Below, in pieces: positions 7,830 to 60,236 of a stretch of DNA of 64,000 bases. The stretch's first letter is position 1; every line of letters starts with the position of its first letter. Location of the stretch: NCBI GenBank assembly GCA_041658325.1, contig JBBAAI010000001.1, positions 154,869 through 218,868 of the forward strand, given 5' to 3'. Source of the DNA: Minisyncoccota bacterium. Lineage in GTDB: Bacteria > Patescibacteriota > Minisyncoccia > Phycocordibacterales > UBA9973. The notes beneath the pieces were generated by a model that saw only the letters and a list, made by a program, of their open reading frames with translations, had not been told where the DNA came from and ran no database searches. The translations under genes and the position numbers were made by a program.

Positions 7830-9527
7830 CTATTCTTCGCGTAGGTCAACAACGCTTTGTACTTCTTCAAACGAAGTAATGCCATTTATTATTTTTACCA
7901 TTCCATCTTGGCGCATAGAAAGTATTCCTTGAGCTCTCGCAACTTTTTTTATTTCTCGTTCACTTGGATTTTCTGTCATAATTTTTTCTATGGCCTCGTC
8001 TGTTCTAATGGCTTCAAAAATACCCATTCTTCCTTTAAATCCTGTCATGTTGCATTTTTCACAGCCAACAGAAGAAAAAAGCTTAAAAGGAACATCTGGA
8101 TTTATTTTATAATTTGAAAGACTTTTCCCTTCTTCTTTTATGCTATTTAGAACAGATTTCATTATTTCTTCCTCTTCTTTGTTTGGGGTTTTTCCTTTTT
8201 TACAAAAAGCGCACAATTTGCGTACTAATCGTTGGGCGATAGAAAGAGACAAAGCTGAAACTAAAATTTTTGGGTTTACTCCAAGGTCGATAAGTCGGGG
8301 AATAACACCAGCGGCATTGTTTGTGTGAAGAGTAGAAAAAACTATATGACCAGTAAGGGCTGATTGAACTGCTATTTCGGCGGTTTCTTTGTCGCGAATT
8401 TCTCCGACCATTACCACATCTGGATCTTGACGGAGAGCTGAACGTAGTCCTTCTGCAAAAGTATAACCTCTTTGGTCATTTGTTTGAGTTTGAGTTATAC
8501 CGGTTAAGTGATATTCAATCGGATCTTCAATGGTTATTATTTTTATTTCTGGAGAATAAATTTTCCTTAAAAAGGCATAAAGAGTAGTGGTTTTTCCAGA
8601 GCCGGTCGGACCAGTAACTAAAATTAGGCCATTTGGTTTTACAATTTCTTGTTCTATCACAGAAAATAAAAATGGTTCTATTCCTATCTCTTCAAGTTCT
8701 ATTTGAATAGACTTTGGATCCAAAATACGCATGACGATTGATTCACCATATGCTCCGGGGATAAGAGAAGCACGAATGCTTATTTCTTCTTTTTCTTCCA
8801 TAATACTAAAACGTCCATCCTGAGCTATATTGGAAGTTAATTTCATTCCAGACAATAATTTAATACGCGAATTTAATAATTTATAAACATCCGTTCCAAA
8901 AAAACTTACATCTTGTAAAACACCATCAAGACGCAGGCGCAATCTACCCCTTTCTTGTTCTGGTTCTATGTGTATATCAGAAGCTTTAATGGCTATTGCT
9001 CCAGCTAAAATTACTTCTAAAAGACGAGAAATTTTATGAATTTTATTTCCCTCTAAGGCCTCCGTTATCATTTTTTGAATATCCTGTATTTTTTGTATTT
9101 TATTTGCTGTCTCTCTTAAAACTTCTCCAGAAATATCCAATCCTCCAATCTTTGAAGTTTCTGCCATTGAAATTTCTTTATATCTTTCCCAAACTTTATT
9201 TATACTGGCCGTGGATACCATGTAAAAAGTTGGAATCAGATTTTTTCTCTCCATATCCTCTTTTAACCTTTTTATAAGATCGTCTTTTGGAGAGTGCAAG
9301 GCTATAAAAATATTTTTTCCAAAAAGTTTAAAAGGCGCTACGTTCATTTCCCTAGAATCTTTTTCAGATATTGCTCGAAGTGCTTCATTGTCTATACCTA
9401 GTCGATAGAGGTCAATATAAGGAAGACCATATTTGGATTCCGCCAGGGTTGCCACCAACTGCTCCTCTTCTTGTTTGTGTAAATCTTCTAGTTGTTTATT
9501 TTGTTTTTCTTCATCAAATAAAGCCAT
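7830..9527 (-). CDS. pilB: type IV pilus assembly ATPase, PilB/GspE family
   Basis: N-terminal GSPII_E_N-like domain; Walker A LVTGPTGSGKTTTLYA; Asp/His boxes; tetracysteine CAFC...CEKC zinc motif. Confidence 0.8.
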   Translation of the reverse strand: MALFDEEKQNKQLEDLHKQEEEQLVATLAESKYGLPYIDLYRLGIDNEALRAISEKDSREMNVAPFKLFGKNIFIALHSPKDDLIKRLKEDMERKNLIPTFYMVSTASINKVWERYKEISMAETSKIGGLDISGEVLRETANKIQKIQDIQKMITEALEGNKIHKISRLLEVILAGAIAIKASDIHIEPEQERGRLRLRLDGVLQDVSFFGTDVYKLLNSRIKLLSGMKLTSNIAQDGRFSIMEEKEEISIRASLIPGAYGESIVMRILDPKSIQIELEEIGIEPFLFSVIEQEIVKPNGLILVTGPTGSGKTTTLYAFLRKIYSPEIKIITIEDPIEYHLTGITQTQTNDQRGYTFAEGLRSALRQDPDVVMVGEIRDKETAEIAVQSALTGHIVFSTLHTNNAAGVIPRLIDLGVNPKILVSALSLSIAQRLVRKLCAFCKKGKTPNKEEEEIMKSVLNSIKEEGKSLSNYKINPDVPFKLFSSVGCEKCNMTGFKGRMGIFEAIRTDEAIEKIMTENPSEREIKKVARAQGILSMRQDGMVKIINGITSFEEVQSVVDLREE

Positions 9528-9565
9528 TTACAATAAAGTATATCTTAAATGGTATAATTTACACA

Positions 9566-11986
9566 ATGCCTGAAAATAATAAAAAATTAGTACTACTAGA
9601 TGCTCACGCTATAATACATCGCGCATATCATGCGTTGCCAGAATTTTTGTCCTCAAAAGGGGAGCCCACTGGAGCTCTTTACGGTCTTTCTAGTATGTTA
9701 ATGAAAATAATTACTGAATTAAAACCAGACTACATTGTTGCTTGTTATGATTTACCACAGAAAACTTTTAGGCACGAAGCTTACGATGGGTATAAGGCGG
9801 GTAGAGCAAAAACAGACGAAGCTCTCATCTCTCAACTAAAGAACTCGCGTCAAATTTTTGAGGGATTTAATATACCAATTTATGATGCTCCTGGATTTGA
9901 AGCCGATGATATTTTAGGAACAATAGTAGAAAAATATAAAAAAGATAAAAAACTAGAAATAATTATTGCCTCGGGAGACATGGATACTATGCAATTAGTG
10001 GAGGATAAAAAGGTACAAGTTTATACTCTAAAAAAGGGAATCAATGACACCATTTTATATGACGAAGACGCAGTAATAAAAAGATTTAACTTTAAGCCGA
10101 AATTTTTACCAGACTATAAAGGTCTACGAGGTGACCCTTCAGATAATATTATTGGCATTAAAGGGATAGGTGAAAAAACTGCTGAAATTTTGATTACAAA
10201 TTTTGGAACGATAGAAGAAATATATAAGAAAATTAAAAAAGACGACGAAGTCTTCAAAAAAGCAGGGATTTCTCCGAGAATAATTGAATTACTAAAAAAC
10301 AATGAGGAGGAAGCTTTCTTTTCAAAAACATTAGCAACAATACGCACAGATGCACCAATAGATTTTGTTTTACCTACAAAAACTTTTTGGAAAAATGTGG
10401 ACCCTAAAAAAATAGAAGAAGTTTTTATTATTTTTGAATTTAGAAGTTTATTTGCACGATTAAAAAATTTTTTAAATTCTTCGGTAAATCCAGCAGAATT
10501 TTCTCAGGTCCTCGGTTCTCCGGGGCCCCGCACCCCGGCCAGACCGTTCGAAAATTCTCTGGATTCACCAATCAACATTAATACTCAAAAATTACAAGAA
10601 GCTAGTATCGCGCTCTGGCTTATTAATTCTGATATTTCAAACCCAGGATTGGAAGATATTTTGCTTTTTGCTAAGACAAAATCTTTTGAGGAGGCATATG
10701 AATTTATTTTTGATAAATTAAAAGAACAAAAATTAGATAAAGTATATGAAGAAATAGAAAAACCGATTATTCCCATAGTGAAAGAAATGGAAGATTTTGG
10801 AATTTTAATAGATAAAAAATATTTTGAAAAATTATCTAATGAATACCATAAAGAATTAGATATTCTAACTAAAAAAATATATAAAGAAGCTGGCGCAGAG
10901 TTTAATATTAATTCTCCAAAGCAAATGGGTGAAGTGCTTTTTGGAAAAATGGGGATGAAGTCTAGTAAAAAGAAAAATGCCAGCGGATCGTTTTCCACGA
11001 AGGTTTCAGTCTTAGAGGAGTTGGAAGAAAACAACCCTATCATAAAAGAAATTTTGGCTTATAGAGAGTTACAAAAATTACTTTCTACTTATATTGATGT
11101 AATTCCAAAAATGGTTTCTGAAGATGGTCGATTACACGCTAAGTTCTTGCAAAATGGAACTACAACTGGTCGATTTTCTTCTCAAGATCCAAATTTACAA
11201 AACTTACCAATAAAAACAGAACTGGGCAGAAAAATTAGAGGTGGTTTTATTGCTGAAAAAGGATGTAAACTCGCGGCCTTTGATTATAGCCAGATTGAAT
11301 TACGTGTAATAGCGATGCTCTCAGGGGATAAAAAGATGATCCAAATTTTTAAGGACAAAAAAGATATTCATGCTGGAGTGGCTTCTTTTGTTTTTGGGGT
11401 GCCTATTGAAAAAGTAGATGGAGAAATGCGTCGCAAGGCAAAGGTAATAAATTTTGGTATTATTTACGGAATGGGGGTTTCCGCCTTAAGAAAAAATCTT
11501 GGAGGTACCCGGGAAGAAGCTCAAAAATTTTATGATAATTATTTTAATCAATTTTCTGGTGTGCGAGATTATTTAGAAAAAGTAAAAATAGATGCTCTTA
11601 AAAAATTTTATACAGAAACTTTATTTGGTCGACGTAGATATTTTCCAAACATAAATTCTAGAATTCCATTTTTAAAAAATATGGCTGAGAGAACAGCAAT
11701 GAATGCTCCTGTTCAGGGCACGGCAACAGCAGACATTATTAAGCTTGCCATAAGATACGCAGAAGAAGATCTGGAAAAAGAGGGTTTATTAAAAAAGACT
11801 CATCTTGTGCTTCAAATACATGATGAATTAGTCTATGAAATAGACGAAAAAGCACTACCACAAGCCTTAAAAATAATAGAAAGTGCAATGAAGGATGTGC
11901 TCAACAGGTCATATTTACACTATAAAACTGATATTCCACTTGAAGTACATTCTGGTTCGGGAAATAATTTTATGGAAGTTAAATAA
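9566..11986 (+). CDS. polA: DNA polymerase I (5'-3' exonuclease + polymerase domains)
   Basis: 5'-3' exo N-terminus LVLLDAHAIIHRAYHA; polymerase motifs DYSQIELR, KVINFGIIYGM, QIHDELVYE. Start taken at MPENNKK (9566). Contains an in-frame GC-rich insert at 10510-10545. Confidence 0.85.
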   Translation: MPENNKKLVLLDAHAIIHRAYHALPEFLSSKGEPTGALYGLSSMLMKIITELKPDYIVACYDLPQKTFRHEAYDGYKAGRAKTDEALISQLKNSRQIFEGFNIPIYDAPGFEADDILGTIVEKYKKDKKLEIIIASGDMDTMQLVEDKKVQVYTLKKGINDTILYDEDAVIKRFNFKPKFLPDYKGLRGDPSDNIIGIKGIGEKTAEILITNFGTIEEIYKKIKKDDEVFKKAGISPRIIELLKNNEEEAFFSKTLATIRTDAPIDFVLPTKTFWKNVDPKKIEEVFIIFEFRSLFARLKNFLNSSVNPAEFSQVLGSPGPRTPARPFENSLDSPININTQKLQEASIALWLINSDISNPGLEDILLFAKTKSFEEAYEFIFDKLKEQKLDKVYEEIEKPIIPIVKEMEDFGILIDKKYFEKLSNEYHKELDILTKKIYKEAGAEFNINSPKQMGEVLFGKMGMKSSKKKNASGSFSTKVSVLEELEENNPIIKEILAYRELQKLLSTYIDVIPKMVSEDGRLHAKFLQNGTTTGRFSSQDPNLQNLPIKTELGRKIRGGFIAEKGCKLAAFDYSQIELRVIAMLSGDKKMIQIFKDKKDIHAGVASFVFGVPIEKVDGEMRRKAKVINFGIIYGMGVSALRKNLGGTREEAQKFYDNYFNQFSGVRDYLEKVKIDALKKFYTETLFGRRRYFPNINSRIPFLKNMAERTAMNAPVQGTATADIIKLAIRYAEEDLEKEGLLKKTHLVLQIHDELVYEIDEKALPQALKIIESAMKDVLNRSYLHYKTDIPLEVHSGSGNNFMEVK

Positions 11987-12010
11987 TATATTGTGTGATA
12001 CAATAAATAA

Positions 12011-12481
12011 ATGGAAAATCACAGCAAAACGGATATTCAAAAACAAAGTGTGCACAAGGTTTTAGCGCACTCATATTCCGTTTATTTAATTTTATTTTTA
12101 ACTGGCGTTTTTCTTGATTTAATTTTTAATTTTAAAATTTTTAATATTTTTTTTATTGTTCCCATGGGTATTTTTTTCTTAGCGTTTGGTACAGGTTTGA
12201 TTATTTGGGCACAGTATACCTCTCTTAATTTAAAAGTAGAAAGTGTGACCAAAGAAACTTTTTGCAAAGGGCCATATTGTTATACTAGAACTCCTACTAA
12301 TTTTGGACTGTTTTTTTTAATGTTGGGATTTGGAATGATAATAAATGCTTTTTTTATAATTTTATTTGCCTTTATTTCTCTTGTTATTACAAAATTCATT
12401 TTTTTAAATAAACAGGAAAAAATTCTTGAAGAAAAATACGGAACTCCCTATCAGGAATATAAAAAATCAGTTAAATTCTAA
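12011..12481 (+). CDS. membrane methyltransferase-like protein (ICMT/PEMT family)
   Basis: 4 predicted TM helices; KGPYCYTRTPTNFG resembles the GPYxxxRHPxYxG motif of the isoprenylcysteine carboxyl methyltransferase family. Confidence 0.45.
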   Translation: MENHSKTDIQKQSVHKVLAHSYSVYLILFLTGVFLDLIFNFKIFNIFFIVPMGIFFLAFGTGLIIWAQYTSLNLKVESVTKETFCKGPYCYTRTPTNFGLFFLMLGFGMIINAFFIILFAFISLVITKFIFLNKQEKILEEKYGTPYQEYKKSVKF

Positions 12482-12496
12482 TTTTCTTAAAATTTT

Positions 12497-13144
12497 ATGT
12501 TGTATCTTTTTTCTGGAGATGACGCTAAAAGTAAAATTTTAAATCATGAAAAATTTATAAAATCTATACCAAAGAGTACGGAAATTTTTTCTGTGAGCCG
12601 AAACAGTTTTGATCCAATTCAAATTGAAAGTTTTTATTCTGGGGCGAGCCTTTTTTCTCCTAAGTCTGCAGTAATTTTTCAAGGGATTTTAGAACACGAA
12701 GAGACCCGTGATTTTGTTTTAGAAAAATTAAATTTAATGGGAGAGTCAGTCAATTCCTTCGTTTTTTTAGAAGGTAAATTAAATAAACCAATATTGGATG
12801 CTTTTAAAAAAGCCCGAGCTGAATTAAATGTTTTTGAATTACCGAAAGAAAAAAAGGAAAAATATGATAATTTTTTAGTAGCAAACGCTTTTGCGAACAA
12901 GGATAAACTTAATACTTGGATTTATTTTAGACAAGCGGTGGATGTCGGGGTCTCCTTAGAGGAAATCGTCGGTGTCCTTTTTTGGAAAATTAAAGATATG
13001 ATTTCGAAAAGGAATTTTAGTAAATTTAAAGAAGAACAACTCAAAGATTTTGCTGTTCGTCTTTCTTATCTTTTACCCGAAGCACGCAAAGAAGGTAAGG
13101 ATGCCGAAGTGGTCCTTGAACAATTTTTACTTGAAGCGTTTTAA
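12497..13144 (+). CDS. holA: DNA polymerase III delta subunit-like
   Basis: N-terminal LYLFSGDD...SLFSPKSAVIF pattern typical of short HolA; position after polA. Weak. Confidence 0.4.
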   Translation: MLYLFSGDDAKSKILNHEKFIKSIPKSTEIFSVSRNSFDPIQIESFYSGASLFSPKSAVIFQGILEHEETRDFVLEKLNLMGESVNSFVFLEGKLNKPILDAFKKARAELNVFELPKEKKEKYDNFLVANAFANKDKLNTWIYFRQAVDVGVSLEEIVGVLFWKIKDMISKRNFSKFKEEQLKDFAVRLSYLLPEARKEGKDAEVVLEQFLLEAF

Positions 13145-13167
13145 AAGTGTGGTATTATCAAAACTAC

Positions 13168-13240
13168 GCGCCCGTAGCTCAGCTGGTAGAGCAGATCCCT
13201 TTTAAGGATAAGGTCCTCGGTTCGATCCCGAGCGGGCGCA
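13168..13240 (+). tRNA. tRNA-Lys (anticodon TTT)
   Basis: gcgcccg/cgggcgc acceptor; D-arm gctcagctggtagagc; anticodon loop cTTTTaa; T-arm ggttcgatcc; CCA not encoded. Confidence 0.8.
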
Positions 13241-13261
13241 CAAAAGGAATTTTAACTACTC

Positions 13262-15457
13262 ATGTCAAAAAGTATTTTTAAACTACATAGTCCTTTTAAT
13301 CCCGCGGGAGATCAGCCGGAGGCCATTTTGAAGCTTCTAGGGGGTCTTGAAAAGGGCATGAAAAAACAAACCTTGCTCGGTGCTACTGGCACAGGCAAGA
13401 CTTTTACGATGGCCAATGTGATAGCCAAGTATAATAAACCGACTCTTGTAATCGCGCATAACAAAACACTTGCAGCCCAACTCGCGCAAGAGTTTCGTGA
13501 ATTTTTCCCCGATGCCGCTGTTCATTATTTTGTTTCCTATTACGACTATTATCAGCCGGAAGCATATATGCCTGTTTCTGATACTTATATTGAAAAGGAT
13601 GCGCAAATAAATAAGGAGATTGATCGCTTGCGTCATGCGACGACTCAAGCATTGCTTACGAGGCGTGATGTGATAATCGTCGCTTCTGTTTCTTGTATTT
13701 ACGGACTCGGTTCTCCTGAAGAATATGAGAAAGTAAATTTAAAACTTGAGGTTGGGATGAAGATGGACAGAATGATTTTAATGAAGAAGTTGATTGAAAT
13801 TCATTTTGAGCGGACTAATGCAGACTTAAATCCCGGAACTTTCCGTTCTGTCAGCGCACGAATAGAATTTATGCCAGTTTCAGAAACTTTTATGTATCAA
13901 ATGGAATTTCAAGATGGAAAAATTTTAAAAATAACAAAAATTGATCCAGTTTCTTCCAGTATTTTAGCAGAAGAAAAAAATGTTTTTATTTTTCCAGCGA
14001 AACATTTCATTACCGAGGAAGGCAAATTAAAAAAAGCGCTAGCTAATATTAAAAAAGAGTTGACCGAACAGTTAAAGAAATTTGGAAAAGGAGGAAAGTT
14101 ACTAGAAGCTGAACGGATAAAAAGAAGAACGAATTATGACCTCGCGATGATAAAAGAAGTCGGTTACTGTAGCGGTATAGAAAATTATTCTAGACATTTG
14201 TCTGGGAAAAAAGAAGGTGAACCGCCGGAAACTCTGCTTTCGTACTTTCCGAAAGAAGGTTTTTTAACTATTATTGATGAATCGCATGTTACCTTGCCGC
14301 AACTGCAGGGTATGTATGCCGGAGATGCTTCTCGCAAGAATACATTGGTGGAATATGGTTTTCGCTTGCCTTCAGCGAAGGATAATCGACCGCTTAAGTA
14401 TGAAGAATTCCAAAAACGGATTGGTCCGGTAATTTATACTAGCGCGACACCCTCCGAACAAGAACGCAGTCAAAGCGAACAAATCGTGGAACAAATCATT
14501 CGCCCGACAGGGCTTGTAGATCCAGAGACAATTGTTAAACCAGTCTCAGCGAGGAGGAGTGCTCTCCAGAATTCGCGCTCTATCTTGGAAGGGCAAGTTC
14601 TTTCTGATAGTAGCGAAGATTCCTTCGAGCACAACTCCTCGCCTTACCCCGGCCAAATTCAAGATTTCATTATTGAAACAGAAAAGACAATTAAAAAAGG
14701 TTTCAGGGTTTTAGCTACCACGTTGACAAAAAAAATGGCAGAAGACCTTTCTGTTTATTTAAAAGATAAAAAAATCAAAGCAGACTATTTGCATAGCGAC
14801 ATAAAAACGATGGACAGAATAAAAATCCTCACCCAATTTAGAAAAGGAGTATTTGATGTTTTAGTGGGCGTGAATCTTTTGCGCGAAGGGCTTGATTTGC
14901 CGGAAGTGGCGCTGATCGGGATTTTAGATGCGGATAAAGAAGGGTTTTTGCGCTCAGAAACATCTTTAATTCAAACAATTGGCCGTGCTGCGCGCAATAG
15001 CGAAGGAAGAGTGATTCTTTATGCTGACTCAGTAACCGGCTCGATGGAATATGCCCTTAAAGAAACTGCTCGCCGTCGAAACATCCAGCTTGCTTATAAT
15101 AAAAAACATGGCATCACCCCGAAAACGATTTCTAAAAAAATAAAAGATATTACCGAAGAACTGGAAAGCGAGCACGGCAAAGCGGTGAATGCTGAACTTA
15201 ATCTTGATTTAGAAGTATTCAAAAAAGCGTATTCAAGAGAACTGAGCAAAGAAGAAAAAGCAGGAAGACAAAAAGTTAATTCAGAATTTTGGAATAAAAT
15301 TTTATCCAACGAAGAACGTGGTAATCTTATTTACGAGAAAATAATCAAAATAAAAGAGAAGGAAATGAATAAAGCAGTCAAAGAACTCGACTTCGAGTCC
15401 GCCGCAATTTTAAGAGATGAAATTATTGTACTTAAAGAAAAATTAACAAAAAGTTAA
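13262..15457 (+). CDS. uvrB: excinuclease ABC subunit B
   Basis: Walker A GATGTGKTF; helicase motifs; C-terminal UvrB/UvrC interaction helix. Carries a ~94-bp GC-rich in-frame insert at about 14549-14642. Confidence 0.9.
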   Translation: MSKSIFKLHSPFNPAGDQPEAILKLLGGLEKGMKKQTLLGATGTGKTFTMANVIAKYNKPTLVIAHNKTLAAQLAQEFREFFPDAAVHYFVSYYDYYQPEAYMPVSDTYIEKDAQINKEIDRLRHATTQALLTRRDVIIVASVSCIYGLGSPEEYEKVNLKLEVGMKMDRMILMKKLIEIHFERTNADLNPGTFRSVSARIEFMPVSETFMYQMEFQDGKILKITKIDPVSSSILAEEKNVFIFPAKHFITEEGKLKKALANIKKELTEQLKKFGKGGKLLEAERIKRRTNYDLAMIKEVGYCSGIENYSRHLSGKKEGEPPETLLSYFPKEGFLTIIDESHVTLPQLQGMYAGDASRKNTLVEYGFRLPSAKDNRPLKYEEFQKRIGPVIYTSATPSEQERSQSEQIVEQIIRPTGLVDPETIVKPVSARRSALQNSRSILEGQVLSDSSEDSFEHNSSPYPGQIQDFIIETEKTIKKGFRVLATTLTKKMAEDLSVYLKDKKIKADYLHSDIKTMDRIKILTQFRKGVFDVLVGVNLLREGLDLPEVALIGILDADKEGFLRSETSLIQTIGRAARNSEGRVILYADSVTGSMEYALKETARRRNIQLAYNKKHGITPKTISKKIKDITEELESEHGKAVNAELNLDLEVFKKAYSRELSKEEKAGRQKVNSEFWNKILSNEERGNLIYEKIIKIKEKEMNKAVKELDFESAAILRDEIIVLKEKLTKS

Positions 15458-15538
15458 TTCTGTGATATAAATTATTTAGTTTAATATTGCAAGAAAAATT
15501 GCTGTCACCCCCTAAGAACAAGGTCGGGTGTCATTGCG

Positions 15539-18139
15539 TTGTATATGAACAAATTAGATAAGAACATAGATAAAATAACAATAAAGGGGGCGAGGACTCA
15601 CAATTTGAAGAATATAAATGTGGAAATGCCTCGCAATAAAATGATAGCCATTACTGGTGTTTCTGGTAGTGGTAAATCATCCTTGGCTTTTGATACCATT
15701 TTTGCCGAAGGGCAGAGGAGATATGTGGAATCTCTCTCTTCTTATGCGCGTCAATTTTTGAATCAAATGCCGAAGCCAGATGTAGACGAGATCACGGGAC
15801 TTTCCCCGGCGATTTCTATTGACCAAAAGTCCCGTTCCAACAATCCACGTTCTACTGTAGCGACGATTACAGAAATTTATGATTACCTGCGCGTGATGTA
15901 TGCGCGTATCGGGCATCCGCATTGTCCGGTATGTGGGGAAGAAATAAAAAAACTTTCCAACGAAGAAATATTAAATTTTGTTTTGGAAAAAATAAATACT
16001 TTAAGCAAAGAAAAAAAGAACAGCAAAAAAGTAATGGGGGTTGAATGGGACGAAACAGAAATCAATATTTTTTCTCCAGTCGTTCGCGGACGTAAAGGGG
16101 AATATTATCAATTGCTTTACGATTTACTCGGAAAAGGTTTTGCTGAGATTCGCCTAGACGGCAAAATGAAAAAGCTTCGCGAGCAAATAGTTCTTTCTAA
16201 AAACAAAGCGCACAACATTGATATTTTAGTTGATCATTTTGCGGTACATGAATTTTCCGACAATAAAGACGCGAGTAGAATGCGTCTCGCGGAGGCGATA
16301 GAACGGGCGCTCATTGAATCCGATAGTTTAGTGACAATAAAAATAGGCGATGAAGAATTTATCATGTCCTCAAAGTTTGCTTGTAAAAATGATGGTTTTT
16401 CTTTTCCAGAAGTTGAGCCGAGATTATTTTCCTTTAATTCCCCGCACGGCGCTTGCTCAGAATGTCATGGTCTTGGCTCAAAATATTTTATGGGAGACGA
16501 ACCCTGTGATGTCTGTCATGGAGCACGCTTACGTCCGGAAGCGTTGAATGTGTTTTTAACTGCAGGGCATAAGAAAATAAATATTTTAGAATTGTCTTCT
16601 CTTCCTATAAAAGACGCGCATGATTTTTTCAAAAATCTAAAATTGTCGGAACAAGAAAAAGAAATTTCTGTTCCAGTGACGAAAGAAATAGAGGCACGAT
16701 TGCAGTTTATGCTCGATGTGGGTTTAGATTATTTGCAACTCTCCCGCAAAGCGAACACTCTCTCTGGCGGGGAAGCGCAACGTATTCGTCTGGCTTCACA
16801 ACTTGGCTCTAGACTCGTCGGAGCGCTTTATGTGCTTGATGAACCAACCATTGGACTACACCAAAGAGACAACGACAGATTGATAAAAACCTTGCAAAAT
16901 CTTCGCGATTTGGGAAATACGATTTTAATTGTTGAGCACGACGAAGATACTATTTATGCCTCAGATTATATTGTTGATATTGGACCAAAGGCAGGGATAC
17001 ATGGTGGAGAAGTGATCGTTTCTGATTATTTAGAAGATTTATTAACTGCTAAAAAAAATACAAATAATTCTAGAACCCTTGCCTATTTGCGAGAAGAAAT
17101 AAAAATAGAAATTCCTAAAAAACGTCGCCAGGCGAAAGGGATGCTACGGGTTGCCGGTGGAAAGATTTTTAATATTAACAATATGAATGTGGAAGTGCCT
17201 TTGGGAGTGATGACTTCTATTACCGGAGTGTCTGGTTCCGGTAAAAGTTCTTTTATGTATGAAATTCTTTATAAAAATCTGCAAGCTCGTTATGAGCGTA
17301 AATATCGCACAGCTAAAATTTTTAACTGTTCTTCTTTTTCCGGCACAGAGTATCTTTCCCGCGCTATTTTGATTGATCAGTCGCCGATTGGTCGCACTCC
17401 ACGTTCAAATATTGCGACATATACAGGCACCTTCACTCATGTTCGTGATCTTTTCGCCTTGACGGAGGATGCTCGACTTCGTGGATGGAAAGCGAACCGT
17501 TTTTCTTTCAATGTGAAAGGTGGACGCTGTGAGGCCTGCGAGGGGAATGGAGAAATTGCGGTAGAAATGCATTTCTTGCCGACCGTTTATGTGACGTGCG
17601 ATGTTTGTAATGGCAAACGTTTTGACAAAGAAACACTCACAGTGAAATACAAGAAAAAAAATATTTATGAGGTACTTAAAATGACCGTGGAAGAAGGACT
17701 AAAATTTTTTAAAGATATTCCGGCTGTTTCGGATAGATTGCAAACCCTTATGGATGTGGGCCTGGGTTATGTTGAACTCGGCCAATCCGCCACGACACTC
17801 TCTGGTGGGGAGGCACAACGTGTAAAAATATCTAGCGAGTTATATCGTCCGCATTTAGAAAAGACGATTTATCTTTTAGATGAGCCGACGGTGGGGCTAC
17901 ATTATGATGATGTGCAGAAGCTTCTAGAAGTGCTTAATAAATTAGTTTCAAAAGGGAATACCGTTGTACTTATCGAACACAATTTAGATATTATCAAAAG
18001 CTCTGATTATATTATTGATATCGGCCCGGAAGGGGGAATAAATGGTGGTAATATTGTGGCTAAGGGCACCCCCGAAGAAGTGGCAGGTAATAGCAAATCA
18101 TATACTGGTAAATATTTAAGGAAAGTATTGCGTAAATAA
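15539..18139 (+). CDS. uvrA: excinuclease ABC subunit A
   Basis: Two ABC ATPase modules (GVSGSGKSS twice, LSGGEAQR twice) with zinc-finger CxxC pairs. Confidence 0.9.
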   Translation: MYMNKLDKNIDKITIKGARTHNLKNINVEMPRNKMIAITGVSGSGKSSLAFDTIFAEGQRRYVESLSSYARQFLNQMPKPDVDEITGLSPAISIDQKSRSNNPRSTVATITEIYDYLRVMYARIGHPHCPVCGEEIKKLSNEEILNFVLEKINTLSKEKKNSKKVMGVEWDETEINIFSPVVRGRKGEYYQLLYDLLGKGFAEIRLDGKMKKLREQIVLSKNKAHNIDILVDHFAVHEFSDNKDASRMRLAEAIERALIESDSLVTIKIGDEEFIMSSKFACKNDGFSFPEVEPRLFSFNSPHGACSECHGLGSKYFMGDEPCDVCHGARLRPEALNVFLTAGHKKINILELSSLPIKDAHDFFKNLKLSEQEKEISVPVTKEIEARLQFMLDVGLDYLQLSRKANTLSGGEAQRIRLASQLGSRLVGALYVLDEPTIGLHQRDNDRLIKTLQNLRDLGNTILIVEHDEDTIYASDYIVDIGPKAGIHGGEVIVSDYLEDLLTAKKNTNNSRTLAYLREEIKIEIPKKRRQAKGMLRVAGGKIFNINNMNVEVPLGVMTSITGVSGSGKSSFMYEILYKNLQARYERKYRTAKIFNCSSFSGTEYLSRAILIDQSPIGRTPRSNIATYTGTFTHVRDLFALTEDARLRGWKANRFSFNVKGGRCEACEGNGEIAVEMHFLPTVYVTCDVCNGKRFDKETLTVKYKKKNIYEVLKMTVEEGLKFFKDIPAVSDRLQTLMDVGLGYVELGQSATTLSGGEAQRVKISSELYRPHLEKTIYLLDEPTVGLHYDDVQKLLEVLNKLVSKGNTVVLIEHNLDIIKSSDYIIDIGPEGGINGGNIVAKGTPEEVAGNSKSYTGKYLRKVLRK

Positions 18140-18143
18140 AACC

Positions 18144-19481
18144 ATGCAAAAAGAGTATCTAAAAAAAGTAAAATTGCCTGATAGGACCGGAGTTTATTTT
18201 TTTCGAAAAGGAAAGGAAATAATTTATATCGGCAAAGCAACTTCTCTTCGAGATAGGGTAAAAAGTTATTTCAGCAAAGATCTCATAGAAACACGCGGGC
18301 AATTCCTTGTGGATATGGTTTTCAAGGCAGATAAAATTGATTGGCAAACTACTGATAGTGTGCTCGAAGCACTAATCCTCGAAGCAAATTTAATTAAAAA
18401 ATATCAGCCGAAATATAATTCCAGAGAAAAAGATGATAAAAGTTTCAATTATGTTTGCATCACGCGTGAAGAAATTCCGAAAGTTGTGCTCGTGAGGGGA
18501 AAAGAATTGGAGGGCTCTGTCGAGCAAAGCTTTTCTCGGGCCCTCGGTTCTCCGGGGCCCCGTGCCCCGGCCAGACCAGCTCGAAAAGCCCCGCTCGGCT
18601 TCGCGAAGGTTTTTGGACCCTATCCGAATGGCGGGCAATTGAAAGAAGCTATAAAAATAATTCGCCGGATATTCCCATTTCTAGACGAGAAGAGTAAAAA
18701 TTATCTTGAATTTTATAAGCAAATAAATTTAGTGCCGGATTTGAAAGACAGGAAACTATATTTGCAGAATATTAGAAATATTATTTTATTTTTTGAAGGG
18801 AAAAAGAAAAAGATTTTGAAAAATTTGGAGAAGGAAATGAAAGAATATGCAAAAAGGAGAGAGTTTGAAAAAGCGGGAGAAATAAAAAGACAAATTTTTG
18901 CGTTGAAACATATAAATGACGTAGCCCTAATCAAAAATGGTAGCTCTGCTTCTTCCAATTTTCTGCCCCTGCGCCCTTCTTCGGGCGCTACGGACTCAAA
19001 GCGGGACCCTCGGGGACAGAAAACTGAAAGAAGCTACGCTAGAATAGAGGCGTATGATATTGCGCATATGGGAGGCAAAAATATGGTTGGGGTTATGGTC
19101 GTTGTAGAGAATGGTGAAGTAAACAAAAACGAATACAGAAAATTCAAAATTAAAACTCAAAAAAATACAAACGACACAGGAGCGTTAAAAGAAGTCATAG
19201 AGAGGCGTTTAGCGCACGCAGAATGGACATTTCCTTCGTTGGTAGTTGTGGATGGAGGAAAAGCGCAAATTAATACAGCAAAAAAAGTTATACTTAAGGC
19301 GGGGTTAAATATTCCGGTGGTCTCAGTTTTAAAAGACGAAAAACATAAACCGAAAGATATTTTAGGCGACAAAATTTTCGCTCGGAAATACGAAAGGGAA
19401 ATTTTGCTTGCCAACAGTGAAGCGCACAGATTTGCGATTAATTATCATAAAAAAATGCGCAATAAGAACTTTTTAAAATAA
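18144..19481 (+). CDS. uvrC: excinuclease ABC subunit C (short form lacking a C-terminal HhH region)
   Basis: GIY-YIG N-terminus GVYFFRKGKEIIYIGKA; UvrC RNase H-like endonuclease region EAYDIAHMGGKNMVG. Two GC-rich in-frame inserts (18542-18577 and about 18955-19025). Confidence 0.8.
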   Translation: MQKEYLKKVKLPDRTGVYFFRKGKEIIYIGKATSLRDRVKSYFSKDLIETRGQFLVDMVFKADKIDWQTTDSVLEALILEANLIKKYQPKYNSREKDDKSFNYVCITREEIPKVVLVRGKELEGSVEQSFSRALGSPGPRAPARPARKAPLGFAKVFGPYPNGGQLKEAIKIIRRIFPFLDEKSKNYLEFYKQINLVPDLKDRKLYLQNIRNIILFFEGKKKKILKNLEKEMKEYAKRREFEKAGEIKRQIFALKHINDVALIKNGSSASSNFLPLRPSSGATDSKRDPRGQKTERSYARIEAYDIAHMGGKNMVGVMVVVENGEVNKNEYRKFKIKTQKNTNDTGALKEVIERRLAHAEWTFPSLVVVDGGKAQINTAKKVILKAGLNIPVVSVLKDEKHKPKDILGDKIFARKYEREILLANSEAHRFAINYHKKMRNKNFLK

Positions 19482-25469: not shown

Positions 25470-27320
25470 TTATTTTATTGTAGTGGTAGTGGTTTTTTTG
25501 CTAAAAGGTTGGCCAGGTTGACCGAAAAGATATTTAGCAATAAGCACTAATACTAGAATGAGAATAAGCAATAGAAGCCATCCGAAAAGATTTGTCGGAA
25601 GAAAACCAGCCCAGAAGACATTCGCCCCAAGGGAGATTTTGTCATTTGCTGGATCGCTCCAAACTTGTGCGGAGACGTTGGCGTTTACTGATTGAACTTG
25701 ACCAGAAGGATCGATGTAAGAGAGAGTAGCAGGGAAGTTTAAGTTTGTTCCAGCTGGAATATTTTCTCTTACTCGTACTCTCACAGTAACTGTACCTTGG
25801 CCATTTGCTCTAAGTGTTCCTAGATTAAAGACTAAAGTATTGCCAGAAATAATTGGATTGCTTGGAGTTGAGAACATATAATCTACTTCATAAGGAAGAT
25901 TCATTCTCAAAGTAAGTCCAGTTATAGAAGCAGTTCCTATGTTTTGGTAATTTACTGTGTAATTGATTTCATCTCCTGGGCGTGGTCTGGTGTTGTCGAT
26001 TGTAGGAACAATTGGTTGATTGCGATCAATAGAAGAATTGATAAGGACAAGCGAGGTTGGAATAACGGGGTTTGTGTTACTTGCTCCTCGTACATTTATG
26101 GTTACCGAATCAGTATCAGATCCAAAAGCATTGCTACAGGTAATATTATAAGTTCTACTTCCTGTTAATGATCCAGTGTAAAAAGATCCAGGGCCAATAC
26201 TTCTAGTTCCTACCCATCCATTTGATCCACCACTAGCATAACAAGATGTTGCGTTCGTAGTAATCCATCTTATCGTAGCTGCTCCGTTATAAGGAACGCT
26301 CGCTTGATCTGCGTAGAGTACAACTGTAGGTAAATTATTTACAGTATTATATCTACAAGGTAACGTACCTCCATAGTTAATAGCATTTACATCTTGGCAA
26401 ATATTATTTATTTGATTTACATACACTGTCGCTGAAGCATTAGCGGACTGCCCAGTACTGTTCGTACAAGTGACACTATAGTTGGTTGTATATGTTGGAT
26501 AAACTGTTTGAGATCCAGAAGTTGAGTTACTTCCACCCCATGAAGTCGAACAAGATGTTGCATTAGCTGAAGACCAGTTTAAAACTGAACTTTGACCAGA
26601 GGTAATACTTGTTGGATTAGAGTAAAGGAAGACGGTGGGTTGTGCGCTTTGATATCTACAAGGTAACGTACCTCCATAGTTAATAGCATTTACATCTTGG
26701 CAAATATTATTTATTTGATTTACATACACTGTCGCTGAAGCATTAGCGGACTGCCCAGTACTGTTCGTACAAGTGACACTATAGTTGGTTGTATATGTTG
26801 GATAAACTGTTTGAGATCCAGAAGTTGAGTTACTTCCACCCCATGAAGTCGAACAAGATGTTGCATTAGCTGAAGACCAGTTTAAAACTGAACTTTGACC
26901 AGAGGTAATACTTGTTGGATTGGCAGTAAGAGAAACAGTAGGAGTAGCTTGCTGACAAGCAGGCATAGTAAGACTTCTGATATTTAAAGCTTCTGTTCCA
27001 TAGTCGTTTGTAACTATAAGTCTGTAGTAGTATGTGGTGCTTTCAGAAAGACCAGAGATGTATTGTTCAATAGGAAAAGTTCCTTCTGTAGTAAAATACT
27101 GCATCGGAGTTGGAGTTCCTCCACCGTTTGCTACAGTATTATATGACGTATCATATTTAAATTGGGCTCTCGCTGGAGGAGTACCAGTAAAAACCGTACC
27201 AGTAATGGTAACACTATTACAGGTCAACGCAGATGCCGGAGTGGCAACAGCGAAAGAACCTAAGAGGGTAAAAATACCCAACATTAACCCGACCAAAAAT
27301 TTTATATTATTATTTTTCAT
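25470..27320 (-). CDS. large surface protein with signal peptide, Thr/Ser/Asn-rich tandem Ig-like repeats and C-terminal TM anchor
   Basis: Signal peptide MKNNNIKFLVGLMLGIFTLLGSFAVATPASA; C-terminal hydrophobic LLLLILILVLVLIA; internal perfect duplication of about 96 aa. Confidence 0.6.
   Translation of the reverse strand: MKNNNIKFLVGLMLGIFTLLGSFAVATPASALTCNSVTITGTVFTGTPPARAQFKYDTSYNTVANGGGTPTPMQYFTTEGTFPIEQYISGLSESTTYYYRLIVTNDYGTEALNIRSLTMPACQQATPTVSLTANPTSITSGQSSVLNWSSANATSCSTSWGGSNSTSGSQTVYPTYTTNYSVTCTNSTGQSANASATVYVNQINNICQDVNAINYGGTLPCRYQSAQPTVFLYSNPTSITSGQSSVLNWSSANATSCSTSWGGSNSTSGSQTVYPTYTTNYSVTCTNSTGQSANASATVYVNQINNICQDVNAINYGGTLPCRYNTVNNLPTVVLYADQASVPYNGAATIRWITTNATSCYASGGSNGWVGTRSIGPGSFYTGSLTGSRTYNITCSNAFGSDTDSVTINVRGASNTNPVIPTSLVLINSSIDRNQPIVPTIDNTRPRPGDEINYTVNYQNIGTASITGLTLRMNLPYEVDYMFSTPSNPIISGNTLVFNLGTLRANGQGTVTVRVRVRENIPAGTNLNFPATLSYIDPSGQVQSVNANVSAQVWSDPANDKISLGANVFWAGFLPTNLFGWLLLLILILVLVLIAKYLFGQPGQPFSKKTTTTTIK
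26351..26931. repeat. 303-bp direct tandem duplication (2 copies, 278 bp identical per unit) inside surface protein gene
   Basis: Read directly: atctacaaggtaacgtacctcc...gttggatt occurs at 26351-26628 and 26654-26931 without mismatch. Confidence 0.9.
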
Positions 27321-27480: not shown

Positions 27481-28296
27481 TCAGTAGTAATAACCGGTAT
27501 TTCCGCCGTATCCTCCGTTAGGAGGAACGTAGCCATTGGTGTACCCACCAGGGTTGTATCCAGTGGTGTATCCACCGGGGTTGTAACTGCCAGTGTATCC
27601 GCCTACAGTGTAACCGCCAGTGTATCCGCCCGGAGGTACCCCAGGACGAACATAAGGAGGCTGGACGTAATTGTTGTAGCTGTACCCTCCGCCTCCGCAT
27701 CCTCCGCCCAAAGAAATGGAGAGCGAAAAGGATTTTGTGGCTACTGGCGGAGGTGCATAAGCAACCTCGTTTCCATTGTGTCCGTTGTACCCATTGTACC
27801 CATTGTACCCATTGTACCCCGGGGGTCCTGGGTCGCCCTTTTCTCCTTTGTCGCCCTTTGGTCCTTGAGTAAGCTGTGTTTGGTTTACTGTTGGAACAGG
27901 GGCTTGAACCGATGCATGAGGATAGTGAACCTCATATACCGGGTTGCCGCATGCGTCGAGTGCATAGGGCTTCAAGGTTTTATCTCCGAGCACATCCCAC
28001 CGCAGAACTGCTCCGGTGAGCAGGATGACCCACTGCTTTCCGGCGGTGGTCAACATGTGGACCACCGCGTTGCTCTCCAGCGGGGCCGTGATCTTGTTGG
28101 TCCCGTTCACTGGATTGTTCTCCTTAAACCCAAAGTACTTGGGCTCATAGGGGGTAAAGTTTCCCGAGAGTAGGGCAGCGTCTGCCGCCTCGCTGGTCGG
28201 AAACAGGTTGGGTTTGCTTTGAGCGCTGGCTGGCGCGCTCATCAGGGTGGCGACAACCGCCACGAAAACCAACGACGCTACCAGTGCTTTTCTCAT
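27481..28296 (-). CDS. secreted collagen-like, Gly/Tyr-rich protein; GC-rich (compositionally foreign)
   Basis: Signal peptide MRKALVASLVFVAVVATLMSAPASA; GPKGDKGEKGDPGPPG collagen triplets; (YNG)4; GGYTGGYT-type C-terminus; much higher GC than flanks. Confidence 0.6.
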   Translation of the reverse strand: MRKALVASLVFVAVVATLMSAPASAQSKPNLFPTSEAADAALLSGNFTPYEPKYFGFKENNPVNGTNKITAPLESNAVVHMLTTAGKQWVILLTGAVLRWDVLGDKTLKPYALDACGNPVYEVHYPHASVQAPVPTVNQTQLTQGPKGDKGEKGDPGPPGYNGYNGYNGYNGHNGNEVAYAPPPVATKSFSLSISLGGGCGGGGYSYNNYVQPPYVRPGVPPGGYTGGYTVGGYTGSYNPGGYTTGYNPGGYTNGYVPPNGGYGGNTGYYY

Positions 28297-58590: not shown

Positions 58591-58750
58591 AAAGATAGTT
58601 CTTTAAAATTACTTGCGAAGGTGGTCATAGCCAAAAGGTGCTTAATATTAGGCATTTCCTGGCTATGACTACCGTTGTGGTTGTCCTCTAGCAAAAACCT
58701 AACCGATGCGTCCTATGGGATGTGTCAAAGAAAAAGGAAGGATGTGCCAA

Positions 58751-59377
58751 ATGGCAAATGCGTCCGAAATCTCTGTCGGTTTAGTTCACGAGCTCGCCAT
58801 CACGGGCACCAAGGTCGGATTCGAGCCCAAAGACTTCGCTACTCTCGCCCACAGCGAGGAAAGGATGTCTTCCATCCTCGGCGTGCTTCATGGTACGCAC
58901 GAGATCCGTCCGATCGATTATGTGATCGATTTCAACTCTCCGGCTCGGTTGCCGTTCAACGGTGCCGTGCTCGAGGTGCACCGCGGAACGGGCATCGTCA
59001 AGCTCGAGAAGAAGGCCGACGGCCTGTATCTCGACGGAAAGAAGCTCACGCTCTTTCTCTCCAAGAAGCAGAAAAAGGGAGGCGTCATCGAGGGCAACAA
59101 GCTTCGCATCGAGCTCGAAAAGAGGGGTAAAAATGTAGGAGCGAAACTCCTTGACCACTTCGTCGAGCATCCAGAGATGTGGCCCGAGGAGTGGAAGAAG
59201 GACGACCAGGGTAATACGCTCTACGTGTTTTTCTGGGATGACATCTTCCGCAACCCGGCGTGTGGCGATCTGTATGTCCGGTGTGGGTGCTGGCGCGGAG
59301 GCGAGGTCATCTCGGGCTACGACTGGCTCGGCGATGACTGGCGCGGCCGCAGCCCGGCTGTCTCTTCCGTAAGTTAG
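58751..59377 (+). CDS. DGR target (variable) protein; C-terminal VR; GC-rich
   Basis: About 208 aa. The 3' 124 bp is homologous to the TR with mismatches only at TR adenines. Start chosen at MANASEISVG (aggaagg SD 9 nt upstream); ORF track alternative start is 58706. Confidence 0.75.
   Translation: MANASEISVGLVHELAITGTKVGFEPKDFATLAHSEERMSSILGVLHGTHEIRPIDYVIDFNSPARLPFNGAVLEVHRGTGIVKLEKKADGLYLDGKKLTLFLSKKQKKGGVIEGNKLRIELEKRGKNVGAKLLDHFVEHPEMWPEEWKKDDQGNTLYVFFWDDIFRNPACGDLYVRCGCWRGGEVISGYDWLGDDWRGRSPAVSSVS
59246..59369 (+). repeat. DGR variable repeat (VR)
   Basis: ttccgcaacccggcg...gctgtctcttccg; 104/124 identical to TR; all 20 mismatches lie opposite TR adenines. Confidence 0.85.
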
Positions 59378-59426
59378 TAATCAGAACTTTGCCTCTTGGA
59401 TCTTCTTGATCCTTGAGACTTAGTCC

Positions 59427-59473
59427 TTGGGCCCTGTGTGTTTGCTTCGGCATTCGCGCAGGGCCTTTTGTTT
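59427..59473 (+). terminator. hairpin + T-run after target gene
   Basis: gggccctg tgtgtttgcttcggcattcgcg cagggcc ttttgtttt. Confidence 0.55.
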
Positions 59474-59706
59474 TGGTAAAATAAATATGGTAGTAGGTGA
59501 ATACGCGAGCGACCACGGTTTCTCGCTACCGAATCCAGTATCCGTATGTCGAGAATATTTGCGACTAAGGTTTCAAATAGGGTGATATACGAAGACACTT
59601 CAAAAATGAAGTTACTTGGTGTAAGGTGCTATGGCATTACGATGCCGAATACGATACAACCTTGAGAGTATTCAAAAGGTGGTGGCACAGAAGGCAGCTT
59701 ACACAT

Positions 59707-59830
59707 TTCCGCAACCCGGCGAATGGCAATCTGTATGTCCGGTATGGGTACTGGAACGAAGGCAAGGTCATCTCGAACTACAACTGGCTCGACAATGACT
59801 GGAACGGCAACAACCCGGCTATCTCTTCCG
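59707..59830 (+). repeat. DGR template repeat (TR)
   Basis: Intergenic copy of VR, rich in AAC/AAT codons (nine Asn codons in VR frame). The open frame in the ORF track (59626..59859) is a consequence of VR homology. Confidence 0.85.
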
Positions 59831-59839
59831 CAACTTACT

Positions 59840-60205: not shown

Positions 60206-60210
60206 AAGTT

Positions 60211-60220
60211 GGGGGGGGGG
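60211..60220. repeat. G10 homopolymeric tract in the divergent avd/RT intergenic region
   Basis: gtt gggggggggg tac, 17 nt upstream of the RT ATG. Confidence 0.9.
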
Positions 60221-60236
60221 TACTATTATAAATACT

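Follow-up and report, generated by a model that had tools for sequence, protein, structure and literature searches.

To our knowledge, Rickettsia is the textbook and almost unique case of a bacterium in which palindromic repeats lie routinely in frame within housekeeping genes. Rickettsia palindromic elements (RPEs) insert in frame into open reading frames (ORFs), in various reading frames and in both orientations (PMC10969869). The GC clusters of yeast mitochondria (e.g., GC42) are GC-rich palindromes with constrained stems and free loops that encode no enzyme, are present or absent among close relatives and undergo merger and shuffling of their units (PMC4478555). Repetitive extragenic palindromic sequences (REPs) are 20-40 nt long, extragenic and tagged with GTAG or CGTC at one end (PMC3733652), and DNA uptake sequences (DUS) are described, in passages of two reports, as being in excess in genome-maintenance genes (PMC2397512, PMC2346458). 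Here we describe a GC-rich hairpin repeat, termed family I, which occurs twice in a 64,000-nt stretch of DNA (called the window below) from a Minisyncoccota bacterium of the Candidate Phyla Radiation (CPR), once in polA and once in uvrC. We favor, with somewhat better than even confidence, the reading that family I is a selfish, non-autonomous hairpin repeat of CPR bacteria of the Paceibacteria/Nomurabacteria type, which is translated through by its host genes and has features of both RPEs and GC clusters.

The original prediction was of a 36-nt element shared in frame by the two genes with 34 of 36 positions identical, and this proved correct. The 36-mer CCTCGGTTCTCCGGGGCCCCGCACCCCGGCCAGACC is found in polA and a variant having two mismatches (TG for CA) is found in uvrC (Table 1), whereas none is expected by chance (zero in 100 dinucleotide shuffles). 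Both copies are read in the same frame of long ORFs, giving the peptides QVLGSPGPRTPARP in polA and RALGSPGPRAPARP in uvrC, and a scan of the window allowing up to three mismatches gave no other match. A repeat finder extended the pair to 47 nt at 91% identity. The two copies are also the most prominent GC islands of the window, which is 36% GC overall, in keeping with the claim of a GC-rich element within AT-rich genes. The exact polA product (P0122) is deposited as the DNA polymerase of a Candidatus Paceibacterota metagenome-assembled genome (MAG), encoded on a contig of 356,709 bp, and has the Pfam domains 5_3_exonuc and DNA_pol_A, and the uvrC product (P0001) is deposited as a UvrB/UvrC-motif protein. 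Both insertions had been assigned to inter-domain linkers. That holds for polA, whereas the uvrC copy sits in a variable loop that separates the GIY-YIG region from the UVR region. In an AlphaFold2 model of the window UvrC, which is weak overall, both inserts of this protein (the second is discussed below) are coil with a predicted local distance difference test score (pLDDT) below 50, and the whole region from residue 93 to 160 is poorly modeled (mean pLDDT 64). Note that the window UvrC is a short protein (445 aa).

Each 36-mer forms just the tip of a longer hairpin, and it is this entire hairpin, of about 80-105 bp, that is inserted. The core is flanked in each gene by arms that pair with one another, GGTAAATCCAGCAGAATTTTC with GAAAATTCTCTGGATTCACC in polA and GTCGAGCAAAGCTTTTC with GAAAAGCCCCGCTCGGC in uvrC, and the outer arm sequences differ between the two genes, each pair being self-complementary. 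Folding of 101 nt around the polA copy gave -41.5 kcal/mol (z = -6.0).

Comparison of the 37 unique copies obtained in the searches described below gave the plan (arm of 15-25 nt)-TTTTC-TC-AGGTCCTCGGTTCTCC-GGGG-CCCC-NNN-CCCC-GG-CCAGACC-(A/G)TTC-GAAAA-(complementary arm), in which CCGGGG-CCCCNNN-CCCCGG forms a GC-rich apical stem-loop. The core is invariant at 11 positions that had been left free in the search pattern (AGGTCCTC upstream and the loop CCCC), whereas the three loop bases NNN are saturated with changes, the majority base being present in 18, 24 and 28 of the 37 copies. The position-wise consensus drops to background about 10 nt outside the core and the arms are copy-specific. All 36 full copies fold as hairpins of 80-120 nt (median 96 nt), and the core is about 75-85% GC in genomes of 29-44% GC. 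The junction between arm and core varies (TCAGG../..RTTC, TCGGG../..AGCTC, ATAAGG../..ATTCTA and GAAAGG../..ATTTC), with the helix continuous in each case, and RNAalifold reported eight pairs that had changed on both sides. Wobble (G.U-type) pairs in the arms are 2.6-fold more common on the opposite strand (80 versus 31), in intragenic and intergenic copies alike, a bias that would be compatible with recognition of one specific strand in single-stranded form. We considered a conserved bulge of one nucleotide in the 5' arm as a defining feature and discarded it, since it was clean in 7 of 36 copies with some irregularity in about 17 of 36.

No Rfam family matched the element at either gathering or E-value thresholds. 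The best E-value matches over the element were at chance level (11-12 bits), and in the window only tRNAs passed the gathering threshold. One of these, a tRNA-Lys(UUU) gene with the anticodon loop CTTTTAA, lies between polA and uvrB. Its variable-loop/T-arm segment AAGGTCCTCGGTTC (14 nt) is identical to the 5' part of the family I core, and the same tRNA was matched in L025 and L034 (loci outside the window are given L numbers). The identity may be due to chance or may be a hint of a tRNA-derived origin. As an account of the element a tRNA origin was set aside, since the nhmmer match has E = 0.23 and the similarity does not extend further, and it is kept only as a lead.

Searches of other genomes and of metagenome contigs found further copies, in genes and in spacers of CPR genomes, which contradicts the absence of other copies that the original prediction had named as one of its two refuting conditions. 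An exact-pattern scan of one genome per species (185,579 species) gave nine loci, all of CPR type. Their sources are Nomurabacteria, Patescibacteria-group and 'Saccharibacteria'-labeled MAGs, with one further locus on a contig of 32% GC that is assigned to a Burkholderiales MAG. When metagenome contigs were scanned with seven loop positions left free, 36 loci were obtained, many from groundwater, and the Hainich groundwater series is the source of many loci. The total for family I is 45 loci beyond the window and 37 unique copies, essentially all from CPR/Patescibacteria. The census of hosts given below rests on these DNA pattern scans only: the 30-aa window peptide found a single marginal match among 1.84 billion protein representatives, and a 110-aa concatenate of the peptides of five frames gave no scorable candidates in the protein database. 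Viral contigs scanned with an apex-tolerant pattern gave no match, and thus there is no evidence for a phage vector. A CRISPR repeat, an assembly artefact and chance were excluded as explanations, as the copies are dispersed, single, free of arrays and present in many independent assemblies.

Two of the loci deserve comment for other reasons. The Burkholderiales-labeled contig (L003; JAMPXW010000001.1, 276,871 bp, 32% GC) carries CPR-type inserts of family I and of a second family in its UvrD gene, and the contig or the whole MAG looks taxonomically mis-assigned. L006 (DAIEQH010000127.1, 519 nt, coverage 0.74) has a left half that resembles the LigA-type copies (..GAGCTCCTGTTCGAAAGGTCC) and a right half like the L008-type intergenic copy. 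This short contig is probably a chimera, the product of mis-assembly across the repeat core, and serves as a warning that such repeats break or mis-join CPR assemblies.

When the insertion contexts were tabulated, 22 of the 37 copies (60%) were intragenic and about 15 intergenic. All 22 intragenic copies keep the host ORF open as stop-free multiples of three, and the same DNA is read in five different frames and in both orientations. Sense frame A (QVLGSPGPRTPARP) accounts for 11 copies, sense frame B (SSVLRGPSPRPD) for two, sense frame C (GPRFSGAPxPGQT) for six and the two antisense frames (WSGRGAGPRRTEDL and VWPGxGAPENRGPE) for three copies together. We infer that the intragenic element is not removed and is translated as a short Pro/Gly/Arg-rich loop that is probably disordered. 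The 22 of 22 record strongly favors translation over splicing or bypass.

The host genes, identified by Pfam except for a RecJ-like fragment recognized by motifs only (L014), are dominated by DNA repair and replication, which account for 15 of the 22 intragenic copies and cover the whole nucleotide excision repair (NER) pathway. The hosts in this group are PolA (window, L005, L020 and L038), the zinc-finger loop of the NAD-dependent ligase LigA (L015, L018, L021, L030 and L044), UvrB (L025 and L043), UvrA (L016), UvrC (window), UvrD/PcrA (L003) and the RecJ-like fragment. The remaining hosts are tRNA/rRNA enzymes: PheT (L002), a LeuS-like class I synthetase (L040), MnmA (L024), TrmD (L035), RsmA/KsgA (L009), a CCA/poly(A) polymerase with an HD domain (L028) and an IscS-like class-V aminotransferase (L007). 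The four hairpin inserts of the window, whatever their family, are confined to polA, uvrB and uvrC; these three genes and uvrA account for about 15% of the sequence. The bias may reflect either targeting of such genes or simple tolerance by large, weakly expressed multi-domain enzymes having permissive loops. The intergenic copies fill nearly the whole spacer between complete, unrelated genes, one of them (L026) lying directly upstream of recA. Many are between co-directional genes and are followed by T runs, and their orientation relative to the flanking genes is mixed (about four the same, three opposite). As regards a possible orientation bias relative to replication, the plus strand of the element is the G-rich strand in 23 of 30 loci, a figure confounded with the coding strand, the intergenic copies being mixed.

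Alignment of orthologues contradicted the other refuting condition, presence of the motif at the same site in all of them, and showed that the element was inserted and is not a linker inherited from an ancestor. About half of the 120 closest UvrC orthologues lack an insert between VRGKxL and (V/I)FGPYP and are about 28 aa shorter exactly at the family I site. About nine carry family I, intact or decayed, and the remainder contain inserts of 25-35 aa that belong to families II and III or to others. The insert types are scattered among closest relatives in a neighbor-joining tree. In the DNA of six UvrC orthologues each insert forms a full hairpin that has arms of its own, and the sites of insertion lie a few codons apart in one loop, whereas the empty site of L048 has no hairpin in its DNA (-8 kcal/mol).

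The PolA linker is more heavily occupied. Among the 120 closest orthologues (78-100% identical), 30 have canonical sense family I, 15 have family I with a different apex, 24 have family I in antisense, about 22 have family III, 27 have other or unclassified inserts and four are empty. In one of these (L055) the whole hairpin is absent and no arms remain in the DNA, whereas the orthologues L005, L020 and L053 retain the same arms as the window copy. The closest empty sites are too diverged from the filled ones for a base-level comparison. Since empty orthologous sites lack both arms, we rejected a model in which one arm is native and the other an inverted copy of it (a snap-back or inverted target duplication), and also, for first insertions, mobility of the core alone into host palindromes. 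Landing of the core in earlier hairpin elements was retained, being supported by the composite inserts described below. Note that UvrC has a second insertion hot spot in the loop from CITK to E(K/E)LPKV, where orthologues carry inserts such as PHLRHGVNGDGL, PARNALHSDAGG, PASPRGGSSTRGG and SIRPDESSGAVG; this loop is empty in the window gene.

At least two other core families, unrelated to family I, share its preferred sites, and the window contains one copy of each in addition to the two family I copies. Family II, the second insert of the window uvrC, has the plan CCCTGCGCCCTTCC-(apical hairpin)-GGNGGGACCCTCG and is read in two frames (..LPRVRGG.. or ..SSLRPSLEYKGG..). The window copy has the outer core CCCTGCGCCCTTC...GGGACCCTCG and the arms GCTTCTTCCAATTTTCTG and CAGAAAACTGAAAGAAGC, and nhmmer ties it to inserts in the UvrC proteins of L046, L050 and L048, in UvrD of L003 and in UvrA of L016. 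Family III, inserted in uvrB, has the plan ..TTCGC..CTGGAAGGGCAAG..AAGATTCCT.. and is read as ..RRHSHSVLEGQ..SEDSSEH.., the window core being ..TTCGCGCTCTATCTTGGAAGGGCAAGTTC..AAGATTCCT... Relative to a solved UvrB structure (9gy7_E), the window UvrB has a 31-aa insertion at residues 430-460 (nt 14549-14641) that coincides with the family III hairpin. The insert is homologous to one in UvrC of L051, and in L043 the same UvrB site holds an antisense copy of family I. Families II and III were also found in UvrA, UvrC, UvrD, PolA and MnmA.

The copies show various rearrangements. The core of L038 is reversed between polA-type arms, and L004 and L008, which are syntenic copies between genes, point in opposite directions. 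The apex can be exchanged: in L053 the polA arms are of the window type (GGCAAGTCCAGCAGAATTTTC...GAAAATTCTCTGGATTTGCC) and the outer core is retained, but the apical hairpin differs, L054 has yet another apex, and L047 has two copies in uvrC, both with the apex TCGCGAGTACGCTC. Nesting is seen in the UvrB insert of L025, where family I precedes the 3' half of family III, and the PolA linkers P0126, P0132, P0190, P0207 and P0228 are composites of two families or retain orphan arms. The arm type GCAAATCCAGNAGAATTTTC is common to polA, the UvrB gene of L025 and the UvrC gene of L047, which indicates that arm and core can move together. Decay toward AT is evident in L049 and in the second L025 copy, and the decayed copies L047 and L049 still keep frame. 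Among three orthologous polA copies (window, L005 and L020), nucleotide identity was 66-74% in the flanking coding DNA, 80-90% in the arms and 91-100% in the core plus junction, and all core differences were in the NNN loop or at the R position. The arms of these copies show compensation (T-A versus C-G, and A-T versus G-C with the window copy an A.C intermediate), and the apical stem covaries between subfamilies: CCGGGG/CCCCGG, CGGGG/CCCCG (L051) and CTGGG/CCCAG (L052).

These findings sustain the suggestion that the element behaves as RPEs do in inserting in frame, given the 22 in-frame copies and the empty orthologues, although the unit that inserts is a hairpin of 80-100 nt and not the 36-mer. 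We favor a selfish repeat because family I occurs in either orientation, in five reading frames and also between genes, and because it is present in some orthologues and absent from others. As to how it spreads, we infer a mechanism in which the element would move as a DNA (or RNA-derived) hairpin, with insertion of the whole hairpin. Copies would survive only between genes or where a large, weakly expressed information-processing enzyme tolerates 27-35 extra residues in a surface loop or linker. Earlier hairpin inserts may be favored landing sites, which would explain the hot spots, the composite inserts and the apex swaps. The outer core and the stem pairing would be kept because they are recognized by a putative trans-acting machinery (a transposase, a nuclease, or a recombination or copy-correction system).

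Several observations weigh against a selfish repeat. No transposase, nuclease or autonomous parent element was identified (RAYT proteins were not searched for), no terminal inverted repeats are conserved across copies, and inspection by eye of the structure-predicted hairpin ends of 36 copies gave no consistent direct repeat indicative of target-site duplication. The arms of most copies are unrelated in sequence, contrary to what a simple cut- or copy-and-paste MITE (a miniature transposable element with inverted repeats) predicts. The orthologous polA core is better conserved than the adjoining coding DNA, for which a host function is an equally possible explanation, and the strand asymmetry of the wobble pairs is likewise awkward. 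The copy number is modest (two per 64-kb window), and the bias toward repair and replication hosts is stronger than tolerance alone obviously explains. Moreover, the core looks invariant in part through ascertainment, exact core patterns having been used to find the loci. Retrieval of the PolA proteins was by PolA homology, however, and in 30 of 120 the canonical peptide is still present and varies only at the two codons overlapping NNN.

The main rival is that family I is a domesticated or primarily functional structured nucleic acid (RNA, single-stranded DNA or cruciform) that binds a dedicated factor and acts in cis as a terminator, processing site, stability element or regulatory tag of repair and tRNA-enzyme genes, with the variable arms acting as a P1-like helix and the invariant outer core as the recognition module. 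The excess conservation of the polA core, the compensatory changes in arms and apical stem, the subfamilies that vary the apex and keep the outer core, and the wobble asymmetry would all be expected of such an element. So would the bias toward NER, RecJ-like and tRNA/rRNA enzyme hosts (with a copy upstream of recA and all four window inserts in polA, uvrB and uvrC) and the intergenic copies that fill co-directional spacers ahead of T runs. However, there is no Rfam match, the intergenic orientation is mixed and flips even at orthologous sites (L004 versus L008, and L038 versus other polA copies), and many copies are visibly decaying. That the same protein sites are held interchangeably by unrelated families, or by nothing, is hard to square with a specific cis function, and we consider this explanation unlikely, if worth serious attention. 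We give slightly less credence to a further possibility, that the elements are CPR-specific exchangeable GC-rich hairpin cassettes under nucleotide-level selection, bound as one-strand hairpins by a dedicated protein and preferentially occupying, and possibly tuning or tagging, the complete NER pathway and the genes of recombination and tRNA maturation, or else that they home to existing hairpins with no enzyme of their own or by means of host enzymes.

CPR bacteria are thought to rely on competence machinery, and the core might then mark 'self' DNA for uptake, like the neisserial DUS or the Pasteurellaceae uptake signal sequence (USS). The bias toward repair and replication genes parallels that of the DUS toward genome-maintenance genes, coding-region copies lie at tolerant positions in several frames, and the core is identical across several related lineages. 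The density is nevertheless far too low (two in 64 kb, where known uptake sequences number hundreds to thousands per genome), conservation spans about 45 nt plus arms rather than 9-12 nt, the copies are whole insertions of 80-100 bp rather than products of point-mutational drive, and unrelated families occupy the same sites. An uptake signal is therefore very improbable. Hardly credible, too, is an intervening sequence absent from the protein, either a mini-intron excised at the hairpin base or a segment skipped by translational bypass; mitochondrial byp elements are GC hairpins of the latter kind (Lang et al. 2014, as cited within PMC4478555). The hairpin does bring the flanks of the host gene together and, as with byp elements, is GC-rich in an AT-rich coding context. 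Yet an excised or bypassed element need be neither stop-free nor a multiple of three, whereas all 22 copies are both, in five frames; the decayed copies of L047 and L049 are still in frame and no ribozyme or intron family was matched. The least probable explanation in our estimation is a protein-level module, a Pro/Gly/Arg-rich linker peptide that is selected, spreading or converging, for a benefit to nucleic-acid enzymes. Frame A is indeed the most common (11 of 22) and the hosts do bind nucleic acids, but the same DNA gives unrelated peptides in five frames, about 15 copies lie between genes, it is the nucleotide sequence that is conserved, synonymous positions included, and palindromic DNA arms are meaningless for a peptide.

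The positions of the window features are collected in Table 1. polA, the tRNA-Lys gene, uvrB, uvrA and uvrC form a cluster on one strand (9371-19481), and a uvrA-uvrC-SpoU methylase-Fpg neighborhood recurs at orthologous loci.

Table 1 Positions of the hairpin inserts, their host genes and other features of the window
Feature	Position	Strand	Remarks
polA host gene	9371-11986	+	Start likely 9566 (MPENNKK); from translation
Family I hairpin, polA linker	10483-10569	+	87 nt, 29 codons; fold, structure-predicted ends
5' arm, polA copy	10483-10503	+	GGTAAATCCAGCAGAATTTTC
Repeat pair, polA member	10499-10545	+	Repeated at 18531-18577
Junction and core, polA copy	10504-10549	+	
36-mer, polA	10510-10545	+	CCTCGGTTCTCCGGGGCCCCGCACCCCGGCCAGACC
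3' arm, polA copy	10550-10569	+	GAAAATTCTCTGGATTCACC
tRNA-Lys(UUU) gene	13168-13240		
uvrB ORF	13262-15457		Pfam identity
Family III hairpin, uvrB	14549-14642	+	Inverted repeat; fold -43.5 kcal/mol
uvrC host gene	18144-19481	+	445 aa; product P0001 with GIY-YIG, UVR and UvrC_RNaseH_dom (Pfam)
Second UvrC insertion hot spot	~18465-18475		aa ~108-110
Family I hairpin, uvrC	18519-18599	+	81 nt, 27 codons; paired arms, orthologues without insert shorter here
5' arm, uvrC copy	18519-18535	+	GTCGAGCAAAGCTTTTC
Repeat pair, uvrC member	18531-18577	+	Repeated at 10499-10545
Junction and core, uvrC copy	18536-18582	+	
36-mer variant, uvrC	18542-18577	+	Two mismatches
3' arm, uvrC copy	18583-18599	+	GAAAAGCCCCGCTCGGC
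Family II hairpin, second uvrC insert	18948-19033	+	Fold -44.2 kcal/mol
Secreted protein	25470-27320		616 aa
GC island	27481-28296	-	Collagen-like secreted ORF
GC island	28011-28264		
Candidate diversity-generating retroelement	58706-61253		Probable
ORF of 223 aa	58706-59377		
GC-rich 3' segment of this ORF	59246-59376		YVRCGCWRGGEVISGYDWLGDDWRGRS
Repeat of the segment	59707-59837		YVRYGYWNEGKVISNYNWLDNDWNGNN
ORF with YADDF motif	60237-61253		Reverse-transcriptase motif

Two other regions of the window are of interest in their own right. One is probably a diversity-generating retroelement. An ORF of 223 aa ends in a GC-rich segment (..YVRCGCWRGGEVISGYDWLGDDWRGRS..) that is repeated 461 nt downstream with 83% identity in an Asn/AAY-rich form (..YVRYGYWNEGKVISNYNWLDNDWNGNN..), and the repeat is followed by an ORF having the YADDF motif of reverse transcriptases. 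The other is an island of 63-74% GC in this 36% GC genome that encodes a Gly/Tyr/Pro-rich, collagen-like secreted ORF (GDKGEKGDPGPPG..GYNGYNGYNGYNG..). The gene for a 616-aa secreted protein with two 291-nt tandem repeats (97% identity) adjoins the island.

With the RPE-like behavior now seen in the CPR, in-frame colonization by hairpins would be something that recurs in genomes that are small, AT-rich and host-dependent. At least three unrelated hairpin families are present here, and nearly every close PolA orthologue carries one. The inserts offer a concrete explanation for many of the lineage-specific 'insertions' in CPR proteins. Annotators and phylogeneticists should be aware that such segments are repeat-derived, cause mis-alignments and can cause chimeric contigs, and the inserts could serve as natural markers of strain history. 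The repair-gene bias and the retention of a 45-nt core against strong AT mutation pressure also make a testable case for a putative hairpin-recognizing machinery in bacteria that are not yet open to genetic manipulation.

A full-text literature search found no description of such elements in CPR/Patescibacteria, as the original prediction had supposed. Insertion sequences are documented in CPR rRNA genes, according to a passage in one report (PMC11270868).

Among known systems the uptake sequences resemble family I in having coding-region copies in several frames and often hairpin-forming pairs. They differ in being 9-12 nt long, in having thousands of copies and in arising by substitution and drive, whereas family I consists of 80-100-bp insertions at about one per 30 kb, a density and length that exclude it from this class. 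MITEs are defined by conserved terminal inverted repeats that match an insertion sequence and by target-site duplications. The bacterial MITEs (Correia, ERIC, BOX, RUP and QMITE, among others) are, like family I, small, non-autonomous, hairpin-forming and multi-copy, with occasional in-frame intragenic copies (PMC10969869). Family I was not placed in the classical MITE class because its termini differ between copies with no evident target-site duplication, and its architecture, an invariant apex on copy-specific arms, is unlike that of a classical MITE. REPs and REPINs, which are mobilized by RAYT proteins (Y1 HUH transposases), resemble family I in that they are structure-recognized hairpins with neither terminal inverted repeats nor target-site duplications, in which compensatory and wobble changes keep a one-strand hairpin. 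In a REPIN, however, the stem is conserved and the loop varies, and family I is the reverse. Assignment to REP/REPIN failed because the family I core lacks GTAG/CGTC, 22 of 37 copies are intragenic and the apex rather than the stem is conserved.

In its fine detail family I behaves like the yeast mitochondrial GC clusters. It likewise inhabits AT-rich genomes and combines constrained stems with a free loop and shuffling of parts, as seen in its hypervariable NNN loop, covarying apical stem (P3), chimeric or apex-swapped copies and nested inserts. GC clusters differ in being about 30-50 nt long, mostly intergenic, organellar and linked to an AG target dinucleotide, whereas the arms of the CPR elements are long and AT-rich and, of the copies sampled, 60% are intragenic and in frame.

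RPEs (RPE-1 to RPE-10) are, like family I, non-coding palindromic repeats of several unrelated families in the small AT-rich genomes of host-dependent bacteria, often found as in-frame fusions in unrelated ORFs and also between genes (PMC10969869). Family I folds as a long hairpin, inserts in frame in unrelated genes and is absent from some orthologues, as RPEs are. RPEs are somewhat longer (about 100-150 bp versus 80-105 bp) and, unlike them, the CPR elements have a near-invariant GC-rich apex on copy-specific arms, show strong re-use of sites, nesting and apex swapping, and are concentrated in genes for DNA repair and tRNA enzymes. As the organisms are unrelated, the resemblance is best taken as a functional analogy, and by that analogy family I would be an undescribed CPR counterpart of the RPE having an unusual architecture and host bias.

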